DNA from: an uncultured virus (IMG/VR IMGVR_UViG_3300025840_000014)
Lineage: Duplodnaviria; Heunggongvirae; Uroviricota; Caudoviricetes
DNA: 64,000 nt
IMG/VR virus record: IMGVR_UViG_3300025840_000014
Direction: 5' to 3' (one strand)
The notes beneath the pieces were generated by a model, which did not search any database, was not told the origin of the DNA, and saw nothing but the letters and a program-made list of their open reading frames with translations. A program made the translations under genes and the position numbers. Shown here one piece after another: positions 3,328-63,541 of the stretch. How positions within the stretch are numbered: position 1 is the stretch's first letter; each line of letters starts with the position of its first letter.

Positions 3328-3594
3328 TCACTTCTCTTTAGATAAATCTATCACACGTTTGCCATTGACGTAGTTGTACACGGTCACCCGTGAAACACCA
3401 CATGCGTCAGCGATTTTGTTCACCGCTTCGCGGAGTTCGAGAGCCCCGAGGTCGATGAACATCCGGATGCAGTAGCGGCGTTCTTCGATCGTCAGTTTTG
3501 ACAGATCGTTAGTCAGCATCCGTCGTCGAACCTCGTCATGGAGGTGGTCGAACGCACCGTGCAGGGTGTGAAGTGGTTCTCTGAGTCCGTGCAT
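3328..3594 (-). CDS. HTH DNA-binding protein (YheO/HTH_22-like)
   Basis: GALELREAVNKIADACGVSRVTVYNYV HTH; TAACCT 6 nt before the ATG. Confidence 0.7.
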   Translation of the reverse strand: MHGLREPLHTLHGAFDHLHDEVRRRMLTNDLSKLTIEERRYCIRMFIDLGALELREAVNKIADACGVSRVTVYNYVNGKRVIDLSKEK

Positions 3595-5934: not shown

Positions 5935-6063
5935 AGCCGTCAATGTAATCCTTAAAAAAGATTTCGGCAACCCGCCCGGTTGTCACACCCACCTGATACG
6001 ATGACGAACGACACAAACCCGTGTCACCCGTATCGAGGGCATGCCCTCGGAAGGAAGGCAATC

Positions 6064-6495
6064 ATGGCAGGATCAGAAACCACGTTGATCGGGAACGTCA
6101 CCAACGAACCCGAACTCAAGTACACCGCACAGGGGGCCGCGCGACTCGCGTTCTCCATCGCTGTGAACCACTACTGGACTGATGCTGACGGCGAGAAGCA
6201 GGAGCGCACCTCCTTCTTCAACGTCACAGCATGGCGGTACCTCGCAGAGGACGCAGCCGCAGTTCTGGAAAAGGGAATCGGCGTCATCGTGCAGGGACGT
6301 CTTGAGCAGCGCACATGGGACGACGATGAGGGGAACAAGCGTTCCACGATCGACGTTCTCGCCAACAACATTGGTGTTCAGGCACGTTCAATTGAGTCGT
6401 TGGAGCGCAAGCGCCGCGACAGCAGCGGATCAGCCCCGGCGGCGAAGGCAACTTCACCTCGGAAGAAGGCTGAACCCGCAGGCGAACCGTTCTGA
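6064..6495 (+). CDS. ssb: single-stranded DNA-binding protein
   Basis: TLIGNVTNEPELKYT, FFNVTAWR, VIVQGRLEQRTW, C-terminal EPF. Confidence 0.92.
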   Translation: MAGSETTLIGNVTNEPELKYTAQGAARLAFSIAVNHYWTDADGEKQERTSFFNVTAWRYLAEDAAAVLEKGIGVIVQGRLEQRTWDDDEGNKRSTIDVLANNIGVQARSIESLERKRRDSSGSAPAAKATSPRKKAEPAGEPF

Positions 6496-6589: not shown

Positions 6590-7216
6590 ATGAGCGACGA
6601 CTCGAAAGCCTTGACACGCGAATTTTTGGCTGAACGCGACCTCCGCATCTTCAAAATGCGGCAGGCAGGCATCACAACCAACGAAATCGCCCGCAGATTC
6701 GGTGTGTCAACCTCGGTCGTGTCAAAAGCGATCTCCCGACAGTTAGAAAAGATGAATCGGGAAGCGTTGAACGCCTACCCGGAAGTTCTCCGCATGGAAC
6801 TTGAACGACTGGACGCTCTCCAAGCCGCAATCTGGCCAATGACGCAACATCGACGAGTAACGATGGACGACGGCCAAGAAGTATCGGTCGAACCCGACAT
6901 GAAAGCCATCCAACAGGTGTTGAGCATCATGGACAGACGTTCAAAACTGTTGGGCATGGAACAATCCAACCTTTCGATCCAAATGGACGTGTCCACAGAC
7001 ACCGCAACCCCAATCCGGGTCACGATGGCTGGAGAACTCGAAGGCGGGGCCGCCGCAGTCGACGCATTCGACCCGGCAGAAGAAGCCAAACAGTTGCTGG
7101 AACTCATGGCTCGATCTGGTGTCCTCCCAGAAGAAGATGTCCAGAAAATGCTCGGCACAGGTGAAGAAGTTGTCGAAGCAGACATCGTAGAGGAGTATGA
7201 TGACACCCATGAGTGA
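6590..7216 (+). CDS. HTH protein, possible terminase small subunit
   Basis: N-terminal HTH TTNEIARRFGVSTSVVSKAI, then ELERLDAL...RSKLLG helices; the TerS role is inference only. Confidence 0.6.
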   Translation: MSDDSKALTREFLAERDLRIFKMRQAGITTNEIARRFGVSTSVVSKAISRQLEKMNREALNAYPEVLRMELERLDALQAAIWPMTQHRRVTMDDGQEVSVEPDMKAIQQVLSIMDRRSKLLGMEQSNLSIQMDVSTDTATPIRVTMAGELEGGAAAVDAFDPAEEAKQLLELMARSGVLPEEDVQKMLGTGEEVVEADIVEEYDDTHE

Positions 7217-7538
7217 CGAAACCGTTGACAACGTAGAGCAGGCGATGGATGCGATCGCTGAAGATCTCGATATGACAATCGCAACCAAACCACCGACCGA
7301 TGACGACCAAGAAGGCGTAAACGCCGACAAACAGATCCTCATCCGAGCCACCCGTGGCGAACATGAGCGTTGGAAGCGTGCCGCCGAAGTCCAAAACACG
7401 TCCATGTCGCAACTTGTCCGAGATCTCGTCAACGCACACGTACAAGGCGTACTCGACTGCCCTCACCCGCCCGAATATCGCAAAAGTTACCCGTGGGCCG
7501 AGTTCTGCCGGAAATGCGACACCCGTCTACGAGGCTGA
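7209..7538 (+). CDS. ribbon-helix-helix-like protein with C-terminal Zn motif
   Basis: ILIR...WKRAAE...SMSQLVRDLV; CPHP...CRKC. Confidence 0.6.
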   Translation: MSDETVDNVEQAMDAIAEDLDMTIATKPPTDDDQEGVNADKQILIRATRGEHERWKRAAEVQNTSMSQLVRDLVNAHVQGVLDCPHPPEYRKSYPWAEFCRKCDTRLRG

Positions 7539-7542
7539 GCCC

Positions 7543-8184
7543 GTGGACATCGAGTTCGACCTCGAAACTGACGGTTTCGCGATAACACGGGGCTTGATCC
7601 CGCCGCATGCGATCGACGAGTACCTCGAAGGCGCATACGCCGGCCTTTCCGAAGCACAAAAGGACAATTTGGCGTTCCAAAGCCACCCGTGGGTCCGTTC
7701 CGTCCTGTGCCACCACGAAATCAACCGTTTTGCCGCACATTGGCGTCTCAACCTCGCGTTACATTCATGCCTGTTGAAACAAGTCGATATTGGGCTTCCA
7801 TGGCACTGCGATCTGCTTGCCGGTGAACGACATTGGGGTATTTGGGTCGCTTTGGGCCCCATCACGAAAGAAAACGGCCCGTTTCAGATCATTCCGGGCT
7901 CCCACCTGTGGGATTTCGACAGATCCGACTCTGGGCTGTCCCCCGAAAACATGGAAATCTCCCCGACGGTTGACAACATCATCGACGAGTACGGTGCACC
8001 TCACCCCGAGTTCTTCATCGCTGAAGCCGGTGACGTCCTCATCTGGGACACGTTCTGCATACATGGGGCGATGAAACCGTTAGATCCGACGACACGACGC
8101 ACAGCAGCGATCGGGCACTACGCCGAACACCCCATGGCAGTCACGGATTGTGACGATGGTGTCAGATGGGTGATGGAACGCTAG
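7543..8184 (+). CDS. phytanoyl-CoA dioxygenase (PhyH) family Fe(II)/2OG oxygenase
   Basis: WHCD, WVALGPIT-ENGP-IIPGSH, AGDVLIW...HG, R. Confidence 0.85.
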   Translation: MDIEFDLETDGFAITRGLIPPHAIDEYLEGAYAGLSEAQKDNLAFQSHPWVRSVLCHHEINRFAAHWRLNLALHSCLLKQVDIGLPWHCDLLAGERHWGIWVALGPITKENGPFQIIPGSHLWDFDRSDSGLSPENMEISPTVDNIIDEYGAPHPEFFIAEAGDVLIWDTFCIHGAMKPLDPTTRRTAAIGHYAEHPMAVTDCDDGVRWVMER

Positions 8185-8194
8185 AGTTACCAGC

Positions 8195-8656
8195 ATGTTG
8201 ACTTATCACGAACGTACAGACTTCTTCACGTTCCCTGCTGGAGCCCGAGCACACGGTGTGAACACCCGTGGCGTCGGAGGCGGTTTAGCAGCAGACGTGT
8301 TCGCCCTACTGCCCGAAATGGAGACCGTCTACAAGTTTGCGTGTAACGCCGGCACATTAGAGCCCGGAGACAGCCTCCCCTACAAGGCCGATGACGGCAC
8401 ATGGTGGTACAACGTCGCTTCACAACGCGATCCGGGCCCTGACGCAACCGTCGAATGGATCATCTCTGGTCTACAGAAAGCCGTTGACCACGCCCAAGAA
8501 CAAGGTGTCGCCACGATGACCATCCCCTGCATTGGGGCCGGTATCGGTGGTCTCCTATGGGGCGACGTCCGTGCAGCACTGTACGACACGTTCACAGATG
8601 GCCTGTTCCACCTACAGGTCGTGACACGAGGCCGGTTCTCCGACTACGATTCATAG
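8195..8656 (+). CDS. macro domain protein (Poa1p/TARG1/DarG-like ADP-ribose hydrolase)
   Basis: AHGVNTRGVGGGLA and IPCIGAGIGGLLW macro motifs. Confidence 0.85.
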   Translation: MLTYHERTDFFTFPAGARAHGVNTRGVGGGLAADVFALLPEMETVYKFACNAGTLEPGDSLPYKADDGTWWYNVASQRDPGPDATVEWIISGLQKAVDHAQEQGVATMTIPCIGAGIGGLLWGDVRAALYDTFTDGLFHLQVVTRGRFSDYDS

Positions 8657-8658
8657 GT

Positions 8659-8850
8659 ATGGAACCCGTAGACGTCTTGCGTGAACTTGGCTCTGACGCC
8701 GAACGCCTGTTCCCACACATCGAGCAACTGGCCGAATGGGCTGCATCCACAGAGAACGAAGAGGTGATCTCAAATGTTCAGGAAGTCGCAACGTACTTCG
8801 CGTGGGTCCGACAGTCCGTCCTCGCCTTCGCATTCGACAGTAGCCGCTGA
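8659..8850 (+). CDS. hypothetical protein
   Basis: MEPVDVLRELG... directly after the macro gene. Confidence 0.55.
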   Translation: MEPVDVLRELGSDAERLFPHIEQLAEWAASTENEEVISNVQEVATYFAWVRQSVLAFAFDSSR

Positions 8851-8977
8851 ACGGTACGCCACCTGCCTGCAGTGTGACCGTCTCCGCAAAGCCCTACGCC
8901 AATGCAAGGAATGCGGCTGCTTCATGCCCGTGAAGGTCCAGATCCCCAACGTGTCCTGCCCTCTCGGCAAATGGTAG
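8774..8977 (+). CDS. small Cys-rich protein (DUF6171-like)
   Basis: RYATCLQC...QCKECGCFM.VK...SCPLGKW; start uncertain because it overlaps the previous ORF. Confidence 0.7.
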   Translation: MFRKSQRTSRGSDSPSSPSHSTVAAERYATCLQCDRLRKALRQCKECGCFMPVKVQIPNVSCPLGKW

Positions 8978-8982
8978 AAGTC

Positions 8983-9057
8983 GTGCAACTCCTGTTCGGC
9001 ATCGTCTGTGTGTACGCCGGTGTAGCCATCCTGTTCTGGCTACTGGACAACCTCTAG
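8983..9057 (+). CDS. putative 24-aa membrane peptide
   Basis: GTG start, MQLLFGIVCVYAGVAILFWLLDNL; fills the gap between genes. Confidence 0.3.
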   Translation: MQLLFGIVCVYAGVAILFWLLDNL

Positions 9058-9368
9058 GGGAGACGCCACCTACTAGGTGACCCGTGGACGGCTGCGTCCA
9101 AAGCGGCCCTCACGTACTCCTCAACGGCATCATGTGTGATCCGTTCCGCTTCCTCACCAGAGAACACAGCCAACTCTTCGCCTGCACGTGTCTGCACCAC
9201 GATCGTGTGGTCAGCCGCCTCACGTAGCCTGACCATCTCGTCAGCGATCTGACGTAACAGGGTGGAGGTCACGTCTACACGTACATGGCCTGCGTCGATC
9301 ACGTCAGCCAACACACGGCACGTCTCAACCAGATCGTCGTCTTCAGGTTCGTACTGTGACTCGCTCAT
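9054..9368 (-). CDS. hypothetical protein
   Basis: ORF in series with the next gene. Confidence 0.55.
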   Translation of the reverse strand: MSESQYEPEDDDLVETCRVLADVIDAGHVRVDVTSTLLRQIADEMVRLREAADHTIVVQTRAGEELAVFSGEEAERITHDAVEEYVRAALDAAVHGSPSRWRLP

Positions 9369-9768
9369 CATTCTCATCTCTCACATGAGGGACACAGGCT
9401 GTGTACAGCAATCCCTCTGATGTCTGATACAGGTCTGCTGGGTCACCACACAGATCACAGTGATCATATGATCGACGCTCAGTCTCGTCAATCAACCGTC
9501 GAAACAACTGTGCTGCTACACGTACACGTTCAGGGCTGTCATCAGGGCGAGGTACGAACTCGGCGTAGAACCTCAAGCCACCAAACTTCTCTTTGATCTG
9601 ATCAATCCTGTACAGGGGTGACACATAGCCAAGGTGACGATCCAACTCGTCAACCAACTCGAACCATCCCGGATTCTGGTCACGCCACACATCAATCTGA
9701 CGTTGACGTACATCACGATCAGACGGCTCATCAGACACAATCAACCACTCCAAACCGTCATAGATCAT
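9343..9768 (-). CDS. conserved phage protein (QIKEKFGGLRFY family)
   Basis: PGW..LV, DQIKEKFGGLRFY, CDLCG...TACVPH. Confidence 0.8.
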   Translation of the reverse strand: MIYDGLEWLIVSDEPSDRDVRQRQIDVWRDQNPGWFELVDELDRHLGYVSPLYRIDQIKEKFGGLRFYAEFVPRPDDSPERVRVAAQLFRRLIDETERRSYDHCDLCGDPADLYQTSEGLLYTACVPHVRDENDERVTVRT

Positions 9769-9943
9769 GGGATGAACGGTAGCACGAGGAGAACAAGCCC
9801 ACCGATCACCATCACACCACAAGCGATGTTCTGGAAGAAGATGTCAACCTTTGTCCACTTGTCCATGTGACCACAGTAACACACATGTCAAGCATTACCC
9901 GTGACGGCCTGCGGCGATCAACCACAAACCATCCCCCCAAGAA

Positions 9944-10597
9944 TCAGAGATGATTCCCCTTAGGACGACGAGGCTTACGATCCCCAGTGATCGGCTCACG
10001 ACGACCACCACCAATCGCATCAACCGTCTTCTCATCGTCATACGTCTTACGAGCATCACGACCAGCATCACGAGCACGACGAGTATTCGACACGAACTGA
10101 CGACCATCACGAGACGCCTTACGCTTCTTCGCATTAGTCGCTCTACGTTCACCCGTGGACAGCCGCGACCAAGCCTCCTTCGGCAAGTACCTGTTCATCA
10201 CAGTCCGACCCTTGCGATCACGACGCTTCGCCGGCTTCCCATCCGACGTCGTCCACTTCTCACGAGTCCACTTCGACAGCGACCGCTGACGCTTCGACTT
10301 CCCACCACGATAGCCACCACCAGCCTTGCGATACGCCTGAGCCAACAACTGCGCCTTCCGAGCAGACCACTGACCAGCACGACCCCCCTTCGAACCAGCC
10401 ATGATCCGACGCTTCAAACGCTCACGCAACTCCGGCTTCGTGTACGACATGCCCTTCACCTCAGGGCCATCGCCCTCCAAAAACATGCCAACCGCAACAT
10501 CAACCCACTCCACAGAACGACCAGACCAGTCCCGTTTCGACTCGACAGGCAGCACCCAGTCACCACGAACAACATCATCAAAACCTTCACGTCCCAT
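9944..10597 (-). CDS. basic DUF5872-like protein
   Basis: YTKPELRERLK..IMAGSKGG.AGQWSARKAQL...GGGY, SLSKWTREKW, RYLPKEAW. Confidence 0.8.
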   Translation of the reverse strand: MGREGFDDVVRGDWVLPVESKRDWSGRSVEWVDVAVGMFLEGDGPEVKGMSYTKPELRERLKRRIMAGSKGGRAGQWSARKAQLLAQAYRKAGGGYRGGKSKRQRSLSKWTREKWTTSDGKPAKRRDRKGRTVMNRYLPKEAWSRLSTGERRATNAKKRKASRDGRQFVSNTRRARDAGRDARKTYDDEKTVDAIGGGRREPITGDRKPRRPKGNHL

Positions 10598-10722
10598 CCA
10601 CACATTCTCCCACACAACAACCAACACAAATAGCAAAAACAACAACACGAACCGCATCAAACTGATACGAAACGTCACACCCACGAGTCTTCAGCCCCGA
10701 AACTTTTCCGCGCACGCCCCAG

Positions 10723-10736
10723 CCGCCGGGCGGCGG
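10723..10736. other. GC hairpin at the strand-skew inversion point
   Basis: CCGCCG-GG-CGGCGG lies between A/C-rich and G/T-rich flanks and is followed by AAATATTTT. Confidence 0.55.
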
Positions 10737-10774
10737 TGTGAAATATTTTGGGTTGTGGCGTTACTTGATTAGAT

Positions 10775-11620
10775 TTATCCGAGTTGTTGGAGTTGTTGGT
10801 TGGTGATGGTTTGTTGGGTGAAGTGTTCGGCGATGTGGATTTGTGTGTGGAGTCCGGGGTGTCGGTTGTCGGTTGCGACGTCCCAGTGTTGTTGTTGTTG
10901 GGGTGTTTGTGGGGTGTGGGTGCAGTGTGGGGGGTGGAATGGTGTGAGGTTGGCGTCTGACCATTTTGTGAGTGGGGTTTGTTGGGGGTGTTGTGGGTGG
11001 TGTGGGTTGATTTGTTGGATGTTGGTGAGGGTGTTTCGGGTGGTTTGGTCCCAACTGGTGATGAGGTGTTGGATGTTGTGGGTTTGTGTCCACCATTGAA
11101 GGAGGTAGAGGTGGTCGAGTGTTTTTGTTGTTGCTTGTTCTGGGTGTATTGGGTGTGGTTTGTGTAGTGGTTTTTGTGTTCCGGGTGCTGGTTTGTGTTG
11201 GTATGGGGTGTGGTGGTTTTTGGGGTTGTTGATGGTGTAGGTGTGGGTGTGTTGGTCCCAGTTGAGGTAGGTGTGTTGGGTTTTGTTGGGTGTTTGCCAG
11301 ATGAGGGTGTGGGTGCGGTGTTGTTCTGGGGCGAGTGTCCAGATGTTTTGTGGTGTTCCGTGTTGTTGTGTGTGTTGTGCGAGTTGTTGTATTTGTGATG
11401 CGAGGTTGTCGCCGGGGTTGGCGAGGTTGTTGATTTTTGTGTTTGTGGTTGTGGCTGCGATGTGGGGCCATGCGTAGTTGGGTGGGAGGAAGGAGCCGTA
11501 GGTGATGCTGCAGCCGAGTGTGATGGTGTTGGGGTTTTGGTGGTGTGGGTGTTGTGGGGTTTTGTGTGGGTATGGGTGTTGGGGGTAGAGGTGGTGTGCG
11601 TTTGGGGTTGGTTCGATCAT
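10775..11620 (-). CDS. SGNH/GDSL-like protein, compositionally biased (copy 3)
   Basis: TITLGCSITYG, WP, NLANPG, WDVATDNRHPGLHTQIHIAE; homologous to 13009-14184. Confidence 0.75.
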   Translation of the reverse strand: MIEPTPNAHHLYPQHPYPHKTPQHPHHQNPNTITLGCSITYGSFLPPNYAWPHIAATTTNTKINNLANPGDNLASQIQQLAQHTQQHGTPQNIWTLAPEQHRTHTLIWQTPNKTQHTYLNWDQHTHTYTINNPKNHHTPYQHKPAPGTQKPLHKPHPIHPEQATTKTLDHLYLLQWWTQTHNIQHLITSWDQTTRNTLTNIQQINPHHPQHPQQTPLTKWSDANLTPFHPPHCTHTPQTPQQQQHWDVATDNRHPGLHTQIHIAEHFTQQTITNQQLQQLG

Positions 11621-11624
11621 GGTG

Positions 11625-11699
11625 TTAGTAGGTGTAGGGGGTTTGTGGTTTTTTGCGGTTTTTGATGCGGCGGTAGATGTGTTTGATTTTGTTGATCAT
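11625..11699 (-). CDS. small basic peptide
   Basis: MINKIKHIYRRIKNRKKPQTPYTY; ATGA overlap with the upstream stop. Confidence 0.55.
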   Translation of the reverse strand: MINKIKHIYRRIKNRKKPQTPYTY

Positions 11700-12880
11700 G
11701 TTGGTGGTGTGATTGTGGTGTTGTGCCAGAAGGGGTGGAGGGTTTTGAGGGTGTTGTTGTCGATTTTGTTGCCGGTGAGGATTTCGTAGTAGTGGATTTG
11801 TCGGTGTAGGCCGGGGTGGGGGTTGGGGTGTTTCCAGTGTTTGTTGGCGGCGTGGTCCCAGAGTTGTTGTTGGTGTGGTGTTTGGGGTTGTAGGTCGCAG
11901 GGGCAGTGGGTTGGGTGTGCGAGCCATTTGGTGATGTGGGGGTGGTTGATGTTGCCGAATTCGTGCCAGTTGGGGTCTGTTGTTGTGGGTTCGTCGGGTT
12001 GTTTGTGTAGGTGGGGTGGGATGTGGTGTTGGTGGTGGGGGTAGTTGAGGATGTGGAGTGTGGCGTTGGTGTTGGGTTCCCAGCCGAGTGTGGTGAGTTT
12101 GATGTTGTTGGTTTGGGTGTAGGTGGTGAGGAGGTCGAGTGCGGTGAGGTTTTGCCAGATTGCTTGGTTTTGGCTGGGGGTGGTTTTTTGGCCGTTGAGG
12201 TTGGTGTCGCGGTGTTTTGCTGGGTTGGTTTTGTTTGGTGTTTCGTATTGTTGGGTGTGTGGGTTGTTGTGGAGTGTTTGTGTGCTGTAGGTGTTGAGGG
12301 GGTGTTGGTTGTGTGGGCCGGTGTGTCGGTCGAGTGGGGGTGTGAGGAGGAGTATTTGTTGTGGGTTGCCGTATTGTTGGATGTGTTTGAAGAGTTTTTG
12401 GACGTTGTACCAGATGTTTTGTCCGGGTGTTGCGATGTTGTTGGTGGTGTGTCCGGTGTGGTGTTGGTGGATGTAGGGCCAGCCGTAGTTGTGGGGGAGT
12501 GCTGCTGCTGCTGTGACTGAGCAGCCGAGGGTGATGGTGTGGGGGTTGTGTTGGTGTTCGTGCCAGTGGTCTCCGTCGGTGTTGATTTGGTGGAGGAGGC
12601 CGGGTGTGTCGTGGTTGGGGCGTTCTGGGTTGTGTTGGTGTGCGTACCAGTTGCCGCCGGTGTGGTAGGTGATGCCGGTTTGGGGGTCGGTTTGGGCGTT
12701 GAGTTGTTGGGGGGTTGCTTGCCAGCATCCCCAGTTGTGGAGTGGGTGTTTGTGGTTGAGGCGGTCGAAGGCGGTGATGCGCCACCATTGGTTGTGTTCG
12801 TGGTCGTAGGTGGGGTGGTTTTCTTGTTTGAGGGCGTGGAGGTGTTGTTGTATGGCTTTGCGGTGGTCGTAGTCGTTCAT
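11696..12880 (-). CDS. SGNH/GDSL-like protein, compositionally biased (copy 2)
   Basis: TITLGCSVT, YGWP, NIATPG, HPGLHRQIHYYE, LHPFW. Confidence 0.75.
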   Translation of the reverse strand: MNDYDHRKAIQQHLHALKQENHPTYDHEHNQWWRITAFDRLNHKHPLHNWGCWQATPQQLNAQTDPQTGITYHTGGNWYAHQHNPERPNHDTPGLLHQINTDGDHWHEHQHNPHTITLGCSVTAAAALPHNYGWPYIHQHHTGHTTNNIATPGQNIWYNVQKLFKHIQQYGNPQQILLLTPPLDRHTGPHNQHPLNTYSTQTLHNNPHTQQYETPNKTNPAKHRDTNLNGQKTTPSQNQAIWQNLTALDLLTTYTQTNNIKLTTLGWEPNTNATLHILNYPHHQHHIPPHLHKQPDEPTTTDPNWHEFGNINHPHITKWLAHPTHCPCDLQPQTPHQQQLWDHAANKHWKHPNPHPGLHRQIHYYEILTGNKIDNNTLKTLHPFWHNTTITPPT

Positions 12881-12916
12881 TTTTGTTTCGCGTTCTGTGG
12901 GTGCGGTTAGATTTAT

Positions 12917-13012
12917 CTAGTAGATGTGTGGGGGTGGGAGTTTGTCTCTCCATCGTTTCCATCGGTAGATGATTCGACGGATTTGGAGCCGCATCATTTG
13001 ATATGGGTTCAT
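12917..13012 (-). CDS. small basic peptide
   Basis: MNPYQMMRLQIRRIIYRWKRWRDKLPPPHIY; ATGA overlap with the upstream stop. Confidence 0.55.
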   Translation of the reverse strand: MNPYQMMRLQIRRIIYRWKRWRDKLPPPHIY

Positions 13013-14184
13013 GTGTGTGATCTTAATGTGTTGGGCCCGTAGTAAGGGGGCGGGTTTTCTGCTTCTTCCCAGAACGGGTGGAGAAGGTCGATGTCTTCTT
13101 GGGTGATTCGGAATTGGCCGAAAATTTCTGCGAAATGAATTTGGCTGTGCACCCCGTGATGCGGATGGTTGCCTGAGTGCCGGTCGTCTGCCCATGTCCA
13201 CACTTGTTGCACGAATTCGTTTGGTGGCGGCGTTTTGCCGCATGTGCAATAGTCGGAGTGCCATAACGCATGTTCTTTCGGCAAAGCAACACCTTGGTGC
13301 TGTTCCTGAAGGCTTGGTATCGGAGAGTTCGTGAACGGGTCGATCAACCCGTTTTCTCGCCAGATTTCCAGACGTTCCGACCCTGTGGTCCAGTGTTCTG
13401 GGAGTGGCTGCATTTGCTGCTGTAACCGCATTTGACCTAAAGCGAAGTTTGTGTAGGGCTCCCACGAGTAGGTTCGCAGTTCGATGTTCATTGCATCGCA
13501 GAGGCCCGCGAACGTTTCGAGAAGGAGGAGGTTGGTGTGAGCAACAATATCCGGACTGATCGTCAACGGTTTAGATTTATCTAAGAGTTTGGATTGGAGT
13601 TCTAAGGGGACGGGTCGTCCTTTTTTGTCTCCGACGACGTATTGACGTTGAACGTAATCGAATACAGCAGTCGGTGAACCGTGTAGATCGAAGCGGAGGA
13701 TGTCTGGCAACAGAAAGCACAGCACGTCCGGAGGGCCGTAGCGTTTTATCATTGCCGTAGCATTAGCGATAATTTCCGCCACACCGGCTCCCGGCATGCC
13801 GAAAGCATTGATGGAAACATCAAGTTGCGTTGCCATGATGTGTGGCCAAGAGAGGTTGTATGGCAGCCCCATGACATGTGTTTGTGAGCATCCGATTGCC
13901 ATGTAGTCGGGGTTTGACACAAAATTTGGGCCAACAAACTCATCGGTGTTGATTAGATTTAGCCGACCTTGCTCGTATTTTTCTTGATTGAACTGAGTGC
14001 CCTGATATGAGCAAGGGCCAAGTTCGGGATGGATAAAAACGTCATCGCCCCCGTTTGTTGGTCTCAGTTGCTGCTGACCGCGTTTGTATGGCCAGCGATT
14101 ACCTATTTCGAATTCCCTGATTTGGGCTATGTCTATGTAATGCTCCGCTGTCTCGTATTCACTGCGGATTTCATTGTTTACCAT
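13009..14184 (-). CDS. SGNH/GDSL-like protein (copy 1)
   Basis: AIGCSQT, SWP, NAFGMPGAG, HHGVHSQIHFAE, LHPFW. Confidence 0.75.
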   Translation of the reverse strand: MVNNEIRSEYETAEHYIDIAQIREFEIGNRWPYKRGQQQLRPTNGGDDVFIHPELGPCSYQGTQFNQEKYEQGRLNLINTDEFVGPNFVSNPDYMAIGCSQTHVMGLPYNLSWPHIMATQLDVSINAFGMPGAGVAEIIANATAMIKRYGPPDVLCFLLPDILRFDLHGSPTAVFDYVQRQYVVGDKKGRPVPLELQSKLLDKSKPLTISPDIVAHTNLLLLETFAGLCDAMNIELRTYSWEPYTNFALGQMRLQQQMQPLPEHWTTGSERLEIWRENGLIDPFTNSPIPSLQEQHQGVALPKEHALWHSDYCTCGKTPPPNEFVQQVWTWADDRHSGNHPHHGVHSQIHFAEIFGQFRITQEDIDLLHPFWEEAENPPPYYGPNTLRSHT

Positions 14185-15419
14185 TGGACTTTCATCCGCT
14201 TGATTCCGTTACCCCACTTACTGAAACCGTATTCGATTTCGTCAGCGTAACGAATGTCGGGCATTTTCTCGATCAGGTTTGCGAAGACCGAACGAAGTTG
14301 TGCTCGCGCAAGCGGTGCCCCAATGCAGTGGTGGATTCCGGGTGCGCCATATGCGACGTGAGATGGGTGAGTGTCGCGCGTTACGTCGAACGTTTCGGCG
14401 TTACGGAAAACTGTTTCGTCACGATTCGCAGAGTAGTACCAGACGACAACTTTGTCACCTTTTTTGATTTCGGTGCCGTGCAACTCGGTGTCTTGGGTTG
14501 CGGTTCTACGGAAATACATGGCGGGTGTCTGGAGGCGCGCCATTTCTTCGATGGCGGTTTTCCAGTGGTCGTCGTAGTTGTCCCACAAAAGTTTTCTTTG
14601 ATCCGGGTTTTCGGTTAGCCGTTTGATTCCACCCGAGGTGACGTGCTGGGTTGTTTCGATACCACCCATGATGAGCACCATGAACAACGATCCGAAATCG
14701 GCATCGTTGAGCACACCACCTTCTTTTGCGTTGACCAGAAGACTGGTGAGGTCGTTCTTGGGATTTTGGCGCCGTTCTTCGGCGAGTCGCCCTGCGTACT
14801 CGGTGATTGAGATGCATGCGTTGAGGAACGTGTCAGCGCGCTCTCCGCCGTGATACTCCGGATCGCTGTTCCCCGTAATTTCACGAACCCGGTCGTGCAT
14901 CCATTTTTTGTCTTCGTCGGCAACACCCATCATTTCGCATGTGATTTCTGTCGGGATGCGCGCGGAGAGTTCTTGATGGATGTCGCACGTGCGTTCCGGA
15001 TATTTTTCAATAATTTCGTCGATGATCTGGGGGGTGATTCTTTCAACAAGTTTTGTGACGTCTGCGATTTGGGTTGGCCCGAATGCTCGCTGGACGATTG
15101 ACCGCACTTCGTGGTGTCGCGGGTTGTCGAGAGCCAGTAGCGAACCGAAATATTCGAAAATGTGTTTCGGTAGGTCAGTGATTAGGTAGCCCTCGCTTGC
15201 GCAAAATAGTTCTGGGTTTCGAGATACGTATGTTGCGTCGTCGTAAAGGGTGACGGCCCAGTACCTTTTGTCCGGAAGATCTTTTTTGGAAAATTGGGGC
15301 AGCCCATGGAAGTGGGTGTATGCGCGGAAGTGCGCGAATCTTTGATCTCGTTTCGCTCGATCGGCGTCGTTGAGGCACCAGTCAGAAATCCAGTTGTCGG
15401 CGAAATGTTTGTCGCTCAT
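14178..15419 (-). CDS. cytochrome P450
   Basis: I-helix GGIETT, ExxR (EMAR), SANRDE, heme loop YGAPGIHHCIG. Confidence 0.93.
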   Translation of the reverse strand: MSDKHFADNWISDWCLNDADRAKRDQRFAHFRAYTHFHGLPQFSKKDLPDKRYWAVTLYDDATYVSRNPELFCASEGYLITDLPKHIFEYFGSLLALDNPRHHEVRSIVQRAFGPTQIADVTKLVERITPQIIDEIIEKYPERTCDIHQELSARIPTEITCEMMGVADEDKKWMHDRVREITGNSDPEYHGGERADTFLNACISITEYAGRLAEERRQNPKNDLTSLLVNAKEGGVLNDADFGSLFMVLIMGGIETTQHVTSGGIKRLTENPDQRKLLWDNYDDHWKTAIEEMARLQTPAMYFRRTATQDTELHGTEIKKGDKVVVWYYSANRDETVFRNAETFDVTRDTHPSHVAYGAPGIHHCIGAPLARAQLRSVFANLIEKMPDIRYADEIEYGFSKWGNGIKRMKVQW

Positions 15420-16858
15420 GAGACGATCCTTACTTGTGGGTTAAGTTCTTTCCATATTAAGACATCGAGTTCGTCGTTCAACATTGGCTGATCCCTAACG
15501 TTGAGGCTTGTGTTCAGCAGGATTGGGATGCCTGTTTGTCTGTTCCACATGCTTAATACGTCGTAGAGGCCGGGGTGTTGGTATTCGTTGACTGTTTGGA
15601 CCCGGGAGGTTCCGTCGGCGTGGACGACCGCTGGCATTAGGTCAGGGCGTCGTGCTTTCACGGCAAATTGCATGTAGGGGGCGGGCCGGTCGAGGTCGAA
15701 CCACTCGTCGGCGTGTTCTTCCATGACGATGGGTGCGAATGGACGGAAGGGTTCACGATTTTTTACTTCGTTGACCCTGTCTTTCATGTTTTTGGGTCGC
15801 GGGTCGGCGAGCAGGCTGCGGTTGCCGAGTGCTCTCGGTCCGAATTCTGCTGCTCCGTTTGCTACAGCAACAATCCCGTCGGTTGACAGGATGTCAATGA
15901 TGTCTTCGCTGGGGTAGAACTTGTTGCCAATTGCGTGCCCAAGGTATGGCCCTCTCCATGGGACGTGGCTGTTGTGGGCAGCGAGTGCTGCGCCGAGGCT
16001 TGATCCAGCGTCTCCCGGGTTGGGCATGATCCACACTTCGTCCCACATGTCGAGGAGTTTTGTGTTGGCGGCGCAGTTGAGCGCGCAGCCTCCCATAAAA
16101 ACGAGATTTTGGGTTGCCGAGTCTCTGCGAACGTGACGCATCAAGTCGATGAGCCGGTTTTCGTAGATCAGTTGGACTGCTGCGGCGATGTCAAATTTAT
16201 CTTGGTCTGTTTCAATTTGGTGAGGCCAGTCAACACCGAGATGAAAGTTTTGTGTTTGGCTGTTCCAATTGGGGAACATTGCGTTTACTTCGCCGGCGTA
16301 TCGTGCGGGGTCACCGTATGCCGCCATTCCCATGAGTACGTATTCATCGAATCCGGGTTTTAGTCCTACGAGTTGGGTGAATGCGCTGTAGAAAAGCCCA
16401 TACGAAACGGGGTACCGAAGTCGTTCGCGTTTTTGGATGTGAGTTCCCCAAGCGTCCCAAACTGTTGCGGTTTCGAACTCGCCGATTGCGTCGAGGACGA
16501 CGACGACGGCTTCGTCAAACGTCGATGTGTAATACCCGGCGGCGGCATGCGAAAAGTGATGGGAGACTTGTATTTCTCTGGGCCACGGATAGTTATACGT
16601 CTCTTTGTATAACTTGTTGTATGTACCGTTTATGCCTCCGTACAAAAATTTGCGGAGCCGCTTCAAAGATCGTTTTTCAAAATACGCGATTAAATCTGGG
16701 GGTTCGGAAAGCGCCTCTTCAAGGAGTTCATCGGCTAACTCGAACGTATTTTTTTGTTTGTTGTACCGTTCGCTGTGCGCGGCAAAAACAATTTCGCCGT
16801 TGTCTACGACGCTGACTGCTGCATCGTGACTTGAGTCGTTGATACCTAGGATCCGCAC
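15416..16858 (-). CDS. carbamoyltransferase (NodU/CmcH/TobZ family)
   Basis: HDAA, HHFSHAA, DAIGE, GGCALN, EFGPRALGNRS, REPFRPFAP, LNTSLN. Confidence 0.93.
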   Translation of the reverse strand: MRILGINDSSHDAAVSVVDNGEIVFAAHSERYNKQKNTFELADELLEEALSEPPDLIAYFEKRSLKRLRKFLYGGINGTYNKLYKETYNYPWPREIQVSHHFSHAAAGYYTSTFDEAVVVVLDAIGEFETATVWDAWGTHIQKRERLRYPVSYGLFYSAFTQLVGLKPGFDEYVLMGMAAYGDPARYAGEVNAMFPNWNSQTQNFHLGVDWPHQIETDQDKFDIAAAVQLIYENRLIDLMRHVRRDSATQNLVFMGGCALNCAANTKLLDMWDEVWIMPNPGDAGSSLGAALAAHNSHVPWRGPYLGHAIGNKFYPSEDIIDILSTDGIVAVANGAAEFGPRALGNRSLLADPRPKNMKDRVNEVKNREPFRPFAPIVMEEHADEWFDLDRPAPYMQFAVKARRPDLMPAVVHADGTSRVQTVNEYQHPGLYDVLSMWNRQTGIPILLNTSLNVRDQPMLNDELDVLIWKELNPQVRIVS

Positions 16859-16884
16859 GTTGCAGATATTAGCCGATAGCAGTT

Positions 16885-17367
16885 TTACAACTGCTCTAGA
16901 TCGTCGACAGAAATTACGCGTGTGTTTTCTGGATCGTATTTTGCGGGCTGGCCGATTTCCCATGCGTCGTCATATTTTTTCCAACCAAATACTTCGACTT
17001 GCATCATTTCGGGAAGTATTGGTCGGGCAACGAACAAAACCAGCCCTTTTCCCAACTGGTGGCGTCGGACAGCGGCGGACATTTGGGTTCTGATCCGACG
17101 AACTTCGATATTGTCGCCGACGTCTGGAAGATCTCGATACAGGTTGTGTTCCGATTTGTGCCAGACGTGACCAGACCAGTATCTATTGGTTGCTTTTGCT
17201 ACCGCCAACTCGCATACACATGCTGCGGCTTGAGCAGTTCTATCGTCTTCCATGTTTTTGCGGTGGTAATGGGGTGCGTCTTGTTTTCCCCAATTTGCTG
17301 CGTGACGTCGAGCGGCGATTTGTAGTGCGTGGTCATATTCCCACGGGTATAGGTCAATTAGTTTCAT
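16885..17367 (-). CDS. hypothetical phage protein
   Basis: ATGA overlap with the primase stop; ELAVAK...PDVG.NIEVR. Confidence 0.7.
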   Translation of the reverse strand: MKLIDLYPWEYDHALQIAARRHAANWGKQDAPHYHRKNMEDDRTAQAAACVCELAVAKATNRYWSGHVWHKSEHNLYRDLPDVGDNIEVRRIRTQMSAAVRRHQLGKGLVLFVARPILPEMMQVEVFGWKKYDDAWEIGQPAKYDPENTRVISVDDLEQL

Positions 17368-19145
17368 GATATGTCCATAAATTCTAGTACTTCGAATGGG
17401 AATTTTTTGCCGCGTGTCATTTGGACTGGCCACGCTCGTAGGTCACGGGCACCACGGAAGTGGTTGACGTCGTAAATGTATTGTCCGTGTGCGGTTGGGT
17501 CAGGCTGTAAGGCCAAACCGAACTCTGGCCATCTGGACCACACTGCGGAACCGAATGGTCGAAGTTCGCGGGAGGTCATAGTCTGTCCGAGTGGAGCGTG
17601 ATGCTCCAGCCAGAGCGCACAGTTGTATGTGGATCTGATTCGGTCCAAATATTTGGCCACCTCGATTGCTACTGCTTCTGACGTTTTGGTTCCGGGGTCA
17701 AGAAACGCCTTGTAGATCGGTCCCATCACCAAAAGTTCGGGTTCCACCTTTTCTATGTGCTCTTCAAGGATGGTTCGGTCAGCGACCGAGAGCAGGTTCA
17801 GGCCATCCGGCTTGATGACAAGGTGTACGTCGCCGGTGCGTTCATAACCCATTGAGCGTGCAGCGCCAATTATCGATGTTGAGGTTCGACGGATAATCCG
17901 CTCTGGGTTTTCGAGGTCAACTGTAAGGGTGCGAATTTTTGGCATCCGCTGAAAGGTGAACGGGTGCACCCCGAAGCCTGAGCAGATCGCGATTTGACGG
18001 GCAAGCATCGTTTTACCGACGCCCTCTGCCGCAACCACCATCACTCGTTCTTGTCGCTCAAGCAAGCCGGGCAACAGCCAGTCGTAAGAGTCGTCGACTT
18101 CTTCTTCAATGAAGTCAACCCAGTTGACTAATTTGCCTTCATCTCGTTCGACAACCTGATCATCTCCCGCGAGGGCGATGTCAGCGATTTTGAGTAGGAG
18201 TGATTGGGGTTTGCGGTCTGTCTCTAGGAGTTCTGCAATTTTCTGTAAGGCGCGTTCTTGCGGGGTGAGTTCTTCTTCTGCAATTTCTGGTTCTTCACCG
18301 TCTTCGGGCTGTTCCTCAGCGACAACATCTTGCCCTTCAAATTCTGCAGCGAGTTCGGAAACCTCGATTTGGACGACGTCCGTGGTGGGGAGTCCGGCTT
18401 GTAGGTGGTCGTAGATGTCTTTATGGTCAGGACACCTCCATACCGCAACATCGCTGCCAGCGTCTGCGAGGAGTCGAGCGACGAGGAGAGCGTGTCGTCG
18501 TCCGGGTTCGTCGTTGTCGACGATGATGTCCACGACTGCTCCAGACAGAGCCTCAGTGTGTATGTCGAGCCATTTACCTGCCCCTCCGGGCATAGTCGTG
18601 GCACAAGCACCCAGCGCGATGAGGGCGTCAGCATCTTTTTCTCCTTCTACGAGGAAGATGGTGTCTCCCTCTTCTTTGGCTTTTAGTACTGCAGGTAGGT
18701 TGTATAGGACTTTCGGTGTATCGCCGAGTTTGTATGTCCACCCGCCTTGTCCGTCGGGTTTACGCTGGCGAAATGTTTTCTTTCCGTCAGGTTCTACGTA
18801 GCGGACTTTTTCAAATAGCAGATGTCCGTCGGAATCTTTATATTCGTATTTGGCGACGAATTTGAGTTTGGGGCGGTCTTGTTTCGGGTATGGGTTGTCG
18901 TCGATGATTCGGTCTGATTGGGGCCATAGGTCTTTGACGTCTAAGCCTACGGATTTGCAGATTTCTGGCGTGTTGCAACCACCGTTGCGATGACAGAAAA
19001 GAACGATCTTGCCGTCTTCGTTTTCGTGGACGGAAAGCGACGGGTTTCGGTCATCTTGTCGGCATGGGCATCGCGCTTCCCACCCGTTGGCTGACGATAC
19101 GACTCCGTCTAATCTCGATAGGAACTCACTTGTATGTTGAAACAT
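17364..19145 (-). CDS. DNA primase-helicase (Zn finger + TOPRIM + AAA_25/RepA-like)
   Basis: RCPC..D.NPSLS, LVEGEKDAD, DND, Walker A AAEGVGKT, LEHH. Confidence 0.88.
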   Translation of the reverse strand: MFQHTSEFLSRLDGVVSSANGWEARCPCRQDDRNPSLSVHENEDGKIVLFCHRNGGCNTPEICKSVGLDVKDLWPQSDRIIDDNPYPKQDRPKLKFVAKYEYKDSDGHLLFEKVRYVEPDGKKTFRQRKPDGQGGWTYKLGDTPKVLYNLPAVLKAKEEGDTIFLVEGEKDADALIALGACATTMPGGAGKWLDIHTEALSGAVVDIIVDNDEPGRRHALLVARLLADAGSDVAVWRCPDHKDIYDHLQAGLPTTDVVQIEVSELAAEFEGQDVVAEEQPEDGEEPEIAEEELTPQERALQKIAELLETDRKPQSLLLKIADIALAGDDQVVERDEGKLVNWVDFIEEEVDDSYDWLLPGLLERQERVMVVAAEGVGKTMLARQIAICSGFGVHPFTFQRMPKIRTLTVDLENPERIIRRTSTSIIGAARSMGYERTGDVHLVIKPDGLNLLSVADRTILEEHIEKVEPELLVMGPIYKAFLDPGTKTSEAVAIEVAKYLDRIRSTYNCALWLEHHAPLGQTMTSRELRPFGSAVWSRWPEFGLALQPDPTAHGQYIYDVNHFRGARDLRAWPVQMTRGKKFPFEVLEFMDIS

Positions 19146-19467
19146 TTTGCACTCGTTTTGTTCCACGTCCGGGCATGTTGATCATGCCTTGCCGTTGAGG
19201 GAAAATGTTTCTTTTTATACGGACCTCGTGCCGTTGCGACTCGTCAAGCCCACCCCATATTCCATATGGTTCCCAGTGCAGCGAGTATTCGAGGCACTGG
19301 TCTTTTACTGAGCATCCGGAGCAAATTTCTTTTGCTTTGCGGATGTTTTCCTCTATTTTTCGGTGGACGTCGCGTGTCCTCTTCATGTCTCGAAGAGGAA
19401 ACCACATTTCGACGTCGTGGCCTTTGCAGGCACCTCCTGTTGGTGGCGCTTCGGGTATTGCTGTCAT
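19126..19467 (-). CDS. whiB: WhiB family transcription factor
   Basis: C-x-WFP...AKEICSGCSVKDQCLEY...GIWGG. Confidence 0.92.
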   Translation of the reverse strand: MTAIPEAPPTGGACKGHDVEMWFPLRDMKRTRDVHRKIEENIRKAKEICSGCSVKDQCLEYSLHWEPYGIWGGLDESQRHEVRIKRNIFPQRQGMINMPGRGTKRVQNVSTYK

Positions 19468-19877: not shown

Positions 19878-19887
19878 CTACCGAATA

Positions 19888-20998: not shown

Positions 20999-20999
20999 G

Positions 21000-23412: not shown

Positions 23413-23458
23413 TTGAGGTTCATCTTCCTGTTTGATTTTTCGACTATTGTTCCTTTGT

Positions 23459-57554: not shown

Positions 57555-57556
57555 AC

Positions 57557-57754: not shown

Positions 57755-57812
57755 GGTTTACAACTTAGCGCATTCTCAGCAAGTATTCTGTTAGTGGAAC
57801 CAAGGAGAGCCG

Positions 57813-63540: not shown

Positions 63541-63541
63541 A

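Follow-up and report, generated by a model that had tools for sequence, protein, structure and literature searches.

A point-anchored, mirror-image two-letter strand skew in a freshwater actinobacterial phage

The skewed locus and its elements

The window analysed here, a 64,000-nt stretch of DNA from an uncultured Caudoviricetes virus (IMG/VR record IMGVR_UViG_3300025840_000014), belongs to a large freshwater actinobacterial phage. At a non-coding spacer in this window the + strand switches from A+C-rich to G+T-rich, and all genes on both sides lie on the minus strand, as the original prediction had stated. Genes for SSB (5980-6492) and a primase-helicase (17364-19163) are found on either side of the locus. 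The elements of the locus, with related genomes and contigs designated by handles such as G002 and L093, are as follows.

9343-9822, minus strand: gene in which the left arm fades
9600-10700: opposite arm, + strand A+C-rich, with a plateau over 9944-10600 and decay inside 9343-9822
9944-10600, minus strand: DUF5872-like gene, third positions 89% G/T on the coding strand
10601-10774: non-coding switch region (174-nt spacer) in which the skew changes sign
10693-10713, + strand: conserved element AGCCCCGAAACTTTTCCGCGC, almost unchanged in G002 and L098, still recognisable in G006 and kept in part in L093
10723-10736: hairpin of the original prediction, CCGCCG-GG-CGGCGG (CCGCCGGGCGGCGG, then TGAAATATTTT)
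10739-10752: A/T patch TGAAATATTTTGGG (14 nt), with an A/T run at the same place in all four aligned sequences
10740-12950: saturated arm, 82% G+T on the + strand, third positions 88-100% G/T on that strand in every 40-codon bin
10769-10779, minus strand: motif copy 1, GATAAATCTAA, where the saturated arm borders the switch, overlapping the stop codon of 10775-11620
10775-11620, minus strand: SGNH-like paralog, 281 aa, 64% of codons made of A/C only; missing from the 91%-identical variant L098
11696-12880, minus strand: SGNH-like paralog, 394 aa, third positions A.29, C.67, G.04, T.00
12907-12917, minus strand: motif copy 2, (A)GATAAATCTAA, on the far border of the saturated arm, with the ATG of 11696-12880 following 27 nt downstream
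13009-14184, minus strand: paralog of normal composition, 391 aa, 28% identical to both skewed paralogs, skewed in its 3' end only
13571-13581, minus strand: motif copy 3, inside 13009-14184

The base fractions of the saturated block (A.087, C.091, G.446, T.375) give a keto (G+T) fraction of 0.821, as against 0.523 ± 0.025 (sd; maximum 0.59) across the 551 other 2,211-nt segments of the window. Mean GC and TA skews over these 2.2 kb are +0.67 and +0.63 (150-nt windows, 30-nt step), and the two skews rise and fall together over 9900-13100 (r = 0.96); in the background at 20-60 kb, r is -0.02 and the absolute GC and TA skews are 0.08 and 0.15. In the left arm (10201-10700) the keto fraction is 0.27-0.36 in 300-nt windows, and cumulative GC skew along the window is lowest at the switch locus. 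Line counts given in the original prediction are reproduced exactly, both for G+T (50/60 at 10801, 56/60 at 10981) and for A+C (49/60 at 10621, 38/60 at 10021).

The asymmetry is concentrated at third codon positions, which on the + strand are G/T in 96% of codons in 10775-11620 and 11696-12880, and in 11% of codons in 9944-10600; read on their own strand, the two SGNH-like paralogs have A/C at 96% of third positions and at only 73-79% of positions 1 and 2. The right arm is a plateau (G/T third positions 0.88-1.00 in all 17 forty-codon bins) that decays within the 3' end of 13009-14184 through 0.81, 0.68 and 0.55. The left arm had been described as fading away from the switch, and a fade is indeed present; it is not steady, however, but consists of a plateau over the DUF5872-like gene (0.05-0.18 in five of five bins) and then a decay within the neighbouring gene, 9343-9822 (0.15, 0.28, 0.47, 0.49).

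The skewed SGNH-like genes have no Pfam, NCBIfam or PHROG matches. The AlphaFold model of a skewed protein (pLDDT 74.1, pTM 0.77) recovers GDSL/SGNH lipases or esterases in each of the first 11 Foldseek rows, with a best E-value of only 2e-3, and across 17 sequences G118 and S120 are invariant and C119 nearly so (90% or more). The residues K, N, T, Q, H and P make up 59% of the 394-aa paralog and 59-64% of the skewed paralogs, versus 33% in the normal one; homologues 57% identical to the product of 11696-12880 have an ordinary amino-acid composition. Skew of this kind is also a practical warning for annotation: gene callers report long spurious frames on both strands of the region, and assemblers tend to break near it.

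The hairpin, to which the original prediction tied the switch, does not appear to be the defining element of the locus. Its sequence is not conserved, G006 having a different GC hairpin (CAGCGG-GGG-CCGCTG) at this position, and the region folds no better than its shuffles (z-scores -0.28 to +2.47); the consensus fold at the switch is weak (-6.4 kcal/mol), and the GC stem, present in the window and with other sequence in G006, was not flagged in a terminator scan. No repeat array, iteron array, DnaA-box cluster or long AT-rich unwinding element was seen at the locus. What recurs is the motif: the 11-mer GATAAATCTAA is present three times, with copies 0.66 and 2.1 kb apart, and the 12-mer AGATAAATCTAA borders the saturated block in several lineages. 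The motif's complement, TTAGATTTATC, contains TAGATT.

A property of the DNA strand that recurs in relatives

The same flip is found in relatives with different flanking genes (L093, G002, G006 and G007), and each complete related genome has two switches. Counting adjacent switches in the window, these four relatives and G008, nine of ten run from A+C to G+T, the sole exception being a 200-nt patch in G006; such a polarity is expected, as the original prediction held, if T and G accumulate on the strands that run outward from the point 5' to 3'. Arms are 0.2-2.2 kb long. The cargo differs by lineage: the window has two SGNH-like genes, L098 has one, G002 has one together with an HNH endonuclease, L093 has oxygenase-like genes, and G007 has others.

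Polarity is kept despite this other cargo and despite opposite gene orientation, so that gene direction does not explain the flip. In the window and at flip 2 of G002, the genes of the saturated arm are coded on the A+C strand; in the homologous arm of L093, bounded by the same motif, they lie on the G+T strand with 99% G/T at third positions, and they have ordinary homologues at E-values of 1e-13 and 1e-22. At flip 1 of G002, one arm carries a + strand gene (third-position G+T 0.92) followed by a minus-strand WhiB gene and an HslV-like gene, and the WhiB gene (Pfam 1.3e-13) has a third-position G+T of 0.10 on its coding strand.

Resident genes are skewed by position. The DUF5872-like protein is 74% identical to its G002 orthologue, which is equally skewed (third-position G+T 0.94), while all 80 DUF5872 homologues elsewhere stand at 0.64 or below (0.54 ± 0.06), versus 0.89 here. 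The skew in the window crosses gene borders, includes the spacer at 11621-11695 (85% G+T), and fades inside 9343-9822 and 13009-14184. Because it fades inside genes, because its polarity is constant among relatives, and because the 80 homologues are unskewed, the skew is a property of the DNA strand, not of genes or of sense transcription.

A proposed local mutational footprint and its alternatives

We tentatively favour, while holding it somewhat short of probable, a local mutational pressure, C>T together with A>G, acting on the strands that leave the point 5' to 3' and arising where DNA synthesis or processing starts. Such a footprint affects one DNA strand only, and its anchor, a fixed non-coding point, lies near 10700-10770; to either side of it, the outgoing strand would have been driven to G+T until free codon positions saturate, with protein selection keeping only the residues that matter. 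From the pattern we infer the direction of mutation, the single-strandedness and the start of synthesis: synthesis or processing would start repeatedly at the point and proceed outward for 1-2 kb, either from an origin-like initiation zone or from a site-specific nick or break that is resected 3' to 5' and then refilled, and the outward strands would stay single-stranded and prone to deamination or be copied with low fidelity.

In favour of a footprint, the bias lies in composition alone, with G-runs, G4 motifs and (GT)n showing no excess over dinucleotide shuffles in any of four blocks. The neighbouring SSB and primase-helicase genes, the position of the cumulative minimum and the kilobase scale of the arms speak for it as well. 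A metallophosphoesterase-type exonuclease (phrog_284, E 1e-53) occurs in all four island-bearing genomes and on two further island-bearing contigs, and is missing from all five island-poor genomes of similar divergence; the association covers few genomes, however, and the gene adjoins one island, such that it may merely belong to the same module. Against a footprint stand the arms themselves, which are unequal plateaus and not symmetric gradients, and the lack at the locus of the iterons, DnaA-box cluster and long AT-rich element looked for above. Polarised recent changes in the DUF5872 gene of the window lineage (3 amino-to-keto, 11 keto-to-amino, 14 within class) reveal no continuing drift towards G+T, and this pattern fits an equilibrium without lending positive support to a footprint. 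No recognisable family A, B or C DNA polymerase was found in G002 as a candidate low-fidelity enzyme.

The original prediction had offered a replication origin as one reading. The sign change, with the G+T polarity of leading strands, is present at the site and in nine of ten switches, yet an origin is only one of several processes with such polarity, and two observations weigh against both an origin and a footprint: complete related genomes have two switches each, and the complete G002 lacks replichore-scale skew (third-position keto 0.35-0.55 in 6-kb bins, with no step outside the islands).

A more specific form of the footprint, which we consider rather improbable, is that the switches are rewriting points, two fixed sites per genome at which, in each replication cycle, a DNA transaction peculiar to these phages holds the 1-2 kb to either side in single-stranded form, making the flanks a built-in local hypermutator that recodes and rapidly diversifies the accessory genes landing there. 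The transaction could begin with a nick or break at a specific site, on which the metallophosphoesterase exonuclease of this lineage then acts, and the cargo so rewritten would include the SGNH-like enzymes, oxygenases, HNH endonuclease and WhiB.

Among the alternatives, an unlikely one is divergent transcription with persistent R-loops, in which a promoter at the motif fires into the block, a second drives the DUF5872 gene in the opposite direction, and the displaced non-template strands are deaminated. TAGATT, a putative -10 hexamer of the TANNNT type, lies at the switch-side edge and points into the block in the window, G002, L093 and G007 (with a one-mismatch variant in G006), and in L093 the genes of the block itself have their start codons 29-30 nt downstream of the motif. 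Further copies are followed by short G+T tracts in the same direction (0.75-0.85 over 13009-13131; G/T at third positions of the + strand in 20 of 20 codons over 13582-13641, just right of copy 3), and a terminator-like hairpin on the + strand (12888-12906) closes the block. The transcript, however, would be antisense to all resident genes in the window, at flip 2 of G002 and in G007; the switches of the WhiB locus lie within a small conserved gene and have no motif; and the motif copy at 3341-3351 breaks the rule. A sigma-70-type scan returned no promoters in 10400-13200, the five terminator-like sites do not exceed the 5.7 expected, and the excess of G-clusters that seeds R-loops is absent.

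A second alternative, also rather improbable, is recoding of the kind seen in GRINS, intense-skew repeats in Streptomyces polyketide synthase genes that have been attributed to an unexplained process (PMC8256042, 2021), acting on members of multi-copy families and linked to gene conversion or recombination between paralogs. The skews here are likewise intense and correlated, with their maximum at third positions; coding strands of negative skew are rich in Pro, Thr, His and Gln codons, and within one strand the sign flips abruptly. The phage also has hosts in an actinobacterial group and an endonuclease in its cargo, and multi-copy families are represented by the three SGNH-like genes of the window and by several 2OG oxygenases. 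The repeat that defines GRINS is missing, since at 80% identity or above the window holds no second copy of the island exceeding 40 nt; the DUF5872 gene, WhiB and non-coding DNA are skewed too, and a fixed switch point with constant polarity falls outside the description of GRINS. GRINS names a pattern and not a mechanism, and this alternative therefore overlaps with the footprint.

We give little credence to selection for two-letter composition itself, whether for the lack of palindromic restriction sites, for unfoldable strands, or as a packaging or translocation signal. A two-letter keto strand cannot hold palindromes, by base pairing, and composition is kept among close variants, in which six of eight distinct variant sites in the block are G<>T exchanges, as are 12 of 28 polarised DUF5872 changes; a saturated mutational equilibrium would likewise leave such exchanges visible. 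Selection would also have to outweigh the large cost to the proteins seen in the K/N/T/Q/H/P content of the skewed paralogs, the mirror flip has no obvious selective meaning, and the skew fades within genes and not at functional borders. Horizontal import of the skewed genes as cassettes, from a donor skewed throughout its genome, is very unlikely: cargo does differ among close relatives and direct copies of one motif border the block, but the skew spans gene borders and spacers and fades within resident genes, its polarity follows the switch point regardless of gene orientation, and the conserved residents DUF5872 and WhiB are skewed only beside a switch.

Least of all can the switch near 10730 be a physical genome end, as the original prediction had alternatively proposed, a terminal repeat or a chimeric join, since in assembled contigs of public runs independent assemblies cross it at even depth. 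In an independent run, 7000-13056 lies on a single 21-kb contig, and a 2.2-kb contig covers 10380-12598 at the depth of its flanks (10.9 vs 11.4 and 11.9). The switch is also crossed by contigs from two further runs and from at least five records with different names, and no joints occur at the island. Some contigs do stop in or near the region (L004 at window position 12619, L008 at 12931; run X4 at 10375-10380 and 12598-12752), but the loose ends at 10340-10379 fall in a conserved DUF5872 core common to many phages; G002 assembles as a circle (141-nt overlap) with both flips internal, and the large terminase gene, of T4-like type (Terminase_6N/6C), is 47 kb away at 57813-59117.

Comparison with known systems

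Origins of bacterial and phage genomes are marked by a sign change in GC skew, with G+T-rich leading strands. The polarity is the same here, and the cumulative minimum coincides with the switch, but the magnitude is 5-30 times larger, the skew extends for just 1-2 kb on either side with no genome-wide component in G002, and there are two switches per genome. In vertebrate mitochondrial DNA, one strand becomes G+T-rich through C>T and A>G changes while single-stranded during strand-displacement replication, to the extent that synonymous sites are nearly two-letter; that asymmetry is genome-wide and graded by exposure time, unlike the local, mirrored and plateau-like skew of the phage. The GC skew of R-loops and the mutation clusters of resected breaks likewise involve transitions that are coordinated by strand, arise on exposed single-stranded DNA and change strand at a fixed position; the transcripts needed for the former would be antisense here, and ordinary 5' to 3' resection predicts the opposite polarity to that observed. 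Third positions that are 96-100% two-letter over kilobases lie far beyond the usual skews of replication and transcription, and the genes concerned are nonetheless still recognisable and foldable.

Allen et al. (2011, PMC3167613) described a mutation footprint of DNA polymerase I beside the ColE1 origin, where replacement of the initiating enzyme extends "over at least 1.3 kb". This footprint shares with the phage arms (0.2-2.2 kb) a kilobase scale at a fixed start of synthesis, and differs in involving an engineered error-prone polymerase, acting unidirectionally on a plasmid; no such enzyme was identified here.

The closest described kind is GRINS (PMC8256042). GRINS are defined by mean absolute GC and TA skews above 0.15 over more than 500 bp and by duplication, a second region matching the first for over 500 bp at above 80% DNA identity; the paper also mentions single-copy skew regions, phage genes and endonucleases. 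Both systems have correlated skews in coding DNA of the actinobacterial world (r = 0.96 here), strongest at third positions and of unknown mechanism, with abrupt sign changes on one strand and an amino-acid shift between Pro/Thr/His/Gln and Gly/Val/Cys/Trp. The phage island differs in that its skews (0.67 and 0.63 over 2.2 kb) are far over the threshold, in that blastn against the 64-kb window returned only two 40-nt matches and no 80%-identity repeat over 500 bp, and in its fixed non-coding anchor, its constant polarity, its inclusion of non-coding DNA and its presence in a virus.

Two-letter skew anchored at a point is rare and may mark the start of DNA synthesis or processing. If such a start site is the cause, sites of this kind would be readable from the sequence of uncultured phages, and the phage would offer a tractable model for GRINS, which reshapes antibiotic-synthesis genes: it is small and has a fixed anchor, related genomes with and without the pattern can be compared, and a bounding motif and a candidate associated nuclease are at hand.

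Strand composition and coding across the flip

Over the saturated arm (10740-12950) the + strand is 82.1% G+T, against 52.3 ± 2.5% (maximum 59%) in 551 other windows of equal length; the GC and TA skews of this block are +0.67 and +0.63, with r = 0.96 across the flip, and to the left of the flip G+T falls to 27-36% in 300-nt windows. Every line count behind the original prediction was reproduced on recount. The sign changes within the 174-nt spacer 10601-10774, and the minus strand is the coding strand of every gene at the locus:

9944-10600, minus strand, DUF5872-like gene, third positions 89% G/T on the coding strand
10775-11620, minus strand, SGNH-like paralog, 281 aa
11696-12880, minus strand, SGNH-like paralog, 394 aa
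13009-14184, minus strand, normally composed paralog, 391 aa

The key point of the original prediction is thus borne out: gene direction is the same on both sides while the skew is opposite, the DUF5872-like gene being G/T-rich and the two paralogs beside it A/C-coded. Scored as third-position G+T on the + strand in 40-codon bins, the two skewed paralogs lie at 0.88-1.00 (17/17 bins) and the DUF5872 gene at 0.05-0.18 (5/5 bins); the value decays within the 3' end of 13009-14184 (0.81, 0.68, 0.55), climbs within 9343-9822 (0.15, 0.28, 0.47, 0.49), and the skew extends into spacers (11621-11695 is 85% G+T). Each arm is a plateau, one about 2.2 kb long and the other about 1.1 kb, and their fuzzy ends disregard gene borders. 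G-runs, G-quadruplex motifs and (GT)n are not in excess in the blocks relative to shuffles, and a search for inverted and direct repeats gave low-complexity matches only. Elsewhere in the window, a short G+T-rich patch (23151-23450, keto up to 0.725) sits where 23116-23409 (minus) and 23432-24085 (plus) diverge, and in the 5' half of a DUF932 gene (2838-3317) G/T makes up 78-85% of third positions as read on the + strand.

At third codon positions 10775-11620 has A.39, C.57, G.04, T.01, and for 11696-12880 the values are A.29, C.67, G.04, T.00. Codons made only of A and C constitute 59-64% of the two genes, and the same fraction of their residues is therefore K, N, T, Q, H or P (33% in the normal paralog). 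Both share 28% identity with the normal paralog, and the three have 52 invariant columns, including G-C-S, W-P and H-x-G-x-H-x-Q-I-H blocks. A protein search retained 4 relatives among 965 candidates (one at 95% identity, two at 57%, one at 40%), and amino-acid composition is ordinary in the two 57%-identical relatives. Searches of the family against Pfam, NCBIfam, PADLOC and PDB sequences gave nothing usable; a structure model of the 394-aa protein (17 family members; pLDDT 74.1, pTM 0.77) has as its best structural matches GDSL/SGNH esterases throughout, weakly (best E 2e-3). On the strength of the relatives, the model and these matches, the skewed paralogs are real, constrained genes in which the free positions have been rewritten.

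Phage context and related genomes

A portal gene and a large terminase of T4 type lie at 55.5-59.1 kb in the window, which also encodes a Rad52-like annealase, a PD-(D/E)XK nuclease, SSB, a Toprim/AAA_25 primase-helicase and ribonucleotide reductase. Its relatives encode WhiB, and the host is therefore actinobacterial; the sequencing runs containing the phage are labelled freshwater metagenomes. Comparison of 9000-16000 with GenBank phages by blastn gave zero matches. An accessory enzyme cluster occupies 13009-22994, including a cytochrome P450 (14178-15419, missing in the related genome G002), a carbamoyltransferase (15416-16963) and four 2OG-Fe(II) oxygenase-like genes (20255-22994); left of the flip are a PhyH-like dioxygenase (7354-8184) and a macro domain (8195-8656). 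Further along, the 539-aa product of 28807-30423 combines DUF3721 at its N-terminus with a Zeta_toxin/AAA_33 kinase-like domain; the neighbouring structural genes are very large (products of 1733, 2421 and 1629 aa) and have no family hits.

The same flip is seen with other flanking genes in G002, in the contig L093 (L094 and L115 represent the same phage) and in the genomes G006 and G007. G002, whose proteins are 65% (carbamoyltransferase), 75% (primase) and 74% (DUF5872 gene) identical to those of the window, has the order carbamoyltransferase, normal SGNH-like gene, A+C-coded SGNH-like gene, A+C-coded HNH endonuclease (Pfam, 9.5e-10), motif, flip and DUF5872 gene, the last G+T-coded (third-position G+T 0.94). 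In the contig L098 the left arm is 91% identical and the 281-aa gene is missing. L093 has flip and motif elsewhere in its gene order: the saturated arm there carries TauD-like and 2OG-oxygenase-like genes on the opposite strand, G+T-coded (third positions 99% G/T), with ordinary homologues in the window and G002 (E 1e-13 and 1e-22), and beyond the flip comes a metallophosphoesterase gene. Flips with the motif occur in G006 and G007 as well, and their cargo is different again. In G006 the weak arm (44950-45100) is non-coding, A+C-rich DNA containing a ~63-nt tandem duplication, the SGNH-like gene of the saturated arm (45100-46200) is broken over frames and the carbamoyltransferase is reduced to a 54-aa remnant; this cargo looks like it is decaying.

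A second kind of flip adjoins WhiB, inside a small conserved gene, in G002, G006, G007 and G008. In G002 one arm of this flip holds a + strand gene (third-position G+T 0.92), then WhiB on the minus strand (0.10 when scored on its coding strand) and an HslV-like gene. Among 80 WhiB loci, 9 are A+C-saturated (third-position G+T at most 0.11), 4 intermediate and the rest ordinary, with similar protein identity in the three classes. Across the window, L093 and four whole genomes, adjacent switches run from A+C to G+T in nine cases and the reverse in one, a 200-nt patch in G006; this polarity is unchanged by reverse complementation. Five other large relatives, with 43-46% median protein identity to G002 (like G007 and G008), lack flips and carry one short island at most: G003, G009 and G010 have no switches and no arms of at least 300 bp, and single patches of 200 bp and 425 bp occur in G011 and G012, respectively. 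Nor do skewed DUF5872 orthologs turn up at unrelated positions, a case that would have told against the original prediction: third-position G+T in 80 other DUF5872 homologues is 0.54 ± 0.06. Judged from the cargo of the relatives, its strands and its unskewed homologues, the skew is tied to position, not to gene family, and does not depend on gene orientation.

The switch and possible causes of the skew

The hairpin at 10723-10736, on which the original prediction centred the flip, is not kept as sequence in L098, G002 or L093. Folded as DNA on both strands in three lineages, the switch region never beat its shuffles (z -0.28 to +2.47), and the consensus structure, to which covariation adds next to nothing, is weak; since G006 has a different GC hairpin at the corresponding spot, a hairpin may still have a structural role. 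Four features are conserved at the switch: the 12-mer AGATAAATCTAA, an A/T run, a C run and the element GCGCGGAAAAGTTTCGGGGCT (minus-strand reading). The 11-mer core has three exact copies in the window, all on the minus strand (10769, 12907 and 13571); with one mismatch allowed there are 5 hits against 0.52 expected, a number reached by 0/100 shuffles. The motif lies at both edges of the saturated arm in the window, G002 (103090, 104573) and L093 (7551, 9045), and at one edge only in G006 and G007; it is missing from the WhiB-locus flips, and the 12-mer alone is not diagnostic, with single copies in island-free G009 and G010 and also in G013 (outside the island scan). A one-mismatch copy, GATAAATCTAT, lies on the + strand at 3341-3351, just upstream of the DUF932 gene start, and the same copy stands beside DUF932 in G002 (115286).

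Saturation of free positions while functionally conserved codons containing G or T survive, in a pattern that is a property of the DNA strand, points to mutation pressure opposed by protein selection. In the block G and T are gained, A and C lost, and G+C is unchanged, from which, on established chemistry, we infer that C>T and A>G changes occurred together on one strand. Deamination would yield this pair of transitions, and so, equally, would G.T mispairs made in a nascent strand. Contigs that are 99.7-99.9% identical differ by SNPs at 8 island sites, too few for a spectrum, and substitutions in the DUF5872 gene, polarised with G002 as outgroup, carry no directional signal. Given the constant polarity, the affected strand would always be the one leaving the switch 5'>3'; such outward strands could be exposed or newly synthesised by bidirectional initiation of DNA synthesis, by a site-specific nick or break that is resected 3'>5' and then refilled, or by divergent R-loops. 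Ordinary 5'>3' break resection is expected to give the opposite polarity.

We tentatively favour the reading that the switch is a start site of DNA synthesis or processing, since one cause would account for both arms under any gene orientation and the locus is flanked by replication genes. The arm lengths also match the kilobase hand-over zone at the ColE1 origin, as described in PMC3167613. A further argument is a metallophosphoesterase-type exonuclease (phrog_284, E 1e-53) found, among few genomes, in 4/4 island-bearing and 0/5 island-poor ones, its gene adjoining one of the islands:

G002 (contig L143:2934-4214), minus strand, 426-aa phrog_284 exonuclease
G006 136776-138053, G007 80500-81741 and G008 90746-92005, also contigs L160 and L221, phrog_284 exonuclease

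Every island-bearing record has it at a distance of 1-3 kb from the switch at the WhiB locus, and between records it is 62-82% identical, well above the genome medians of 45-67%; the 64-kb window lacks it. Against a start site stand the two switches per genome, the unequal plateaus, the absence of an initiator-site array and the absence of replichore-scale skew in G002; moreover, a Pfam search of the complete 137-kb G002 found no recognisable family A, B or C (Pol III alpha) DNA polymerase. G002 does encode SSB, a primase-helicase, ThyX (flavin-dependent thymidylate synthase) and one ordinary-looking dCMP/cytidine-deaminase-family gene distant from both switches. ThyX (window 63287-64000; G002 57255-58331) is found in the window, L094, G007, G008 and partly G006, and is weak or absent in island-poor relatives; a link between nucleotide pools and transition bias is conceivable.

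Divergent R-loops driven by promoters are an unlikely source, as kilobase-long antisense transcripts would be needed in most lineages; what keeps them in play is the orientation of the motif, a near-palindrome whose complement includes TAGATT and would fit what we take to be the actinobacterial -10 hexamer. A promoter scan returned 0 promoter-like sites, and 5 terminator-like sites against 5.7 expected; Rfam gave no matches in 9000-14000 (E up to 1). RNA-library contigs cover parts of 8278-10573 and 12826-14297, with none in 10612-12096 and one poor piece in 12097-12278; contigs of this kind tell nothing of strand or of the absence of transcripts.

Neither a chimeric join nor a terminal repeat nor a unique physical end, the last being one of the two candidates named in the original prediction, is supported: near-identical contigs from several records span the flip, an independent run has a single 21-kb contig over 7000-13056, another has a 2,219-nt contig (10380-12598) at depth 10.9 against 11.4 and 11.9 in the flanks with no joints seen, and G002 (137,029 bp) closes on itself through a 141-nt overlap with both flips internal. 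Assembly breaks fall at 10375-10380, in a DUF5872 core common to hundreds of phages, and at 12598-12752. In one run the assemblies break at 10340-10380, where the conserved core is common to about 600 viral contigs, and the loose ends run on into other sequences.

Comparison with GRINS

A literature search found no account of skew flips anchored at a point in phage genomes. Among described kinds, GRINS, the intense-skew repeats of Streptomyces polyketide synthase genes, come closest: in PMC8256042 they have the skew signature, codon-position pattern and amino-acid shift seen in the window. GRINS are also repeats, and no repeat that would qualify the island as one of them was found in the window. 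Unlike GRINS as described there, the window skew has a fixed anchor with constant polarity and a bounding motif, and it resides in a virus.
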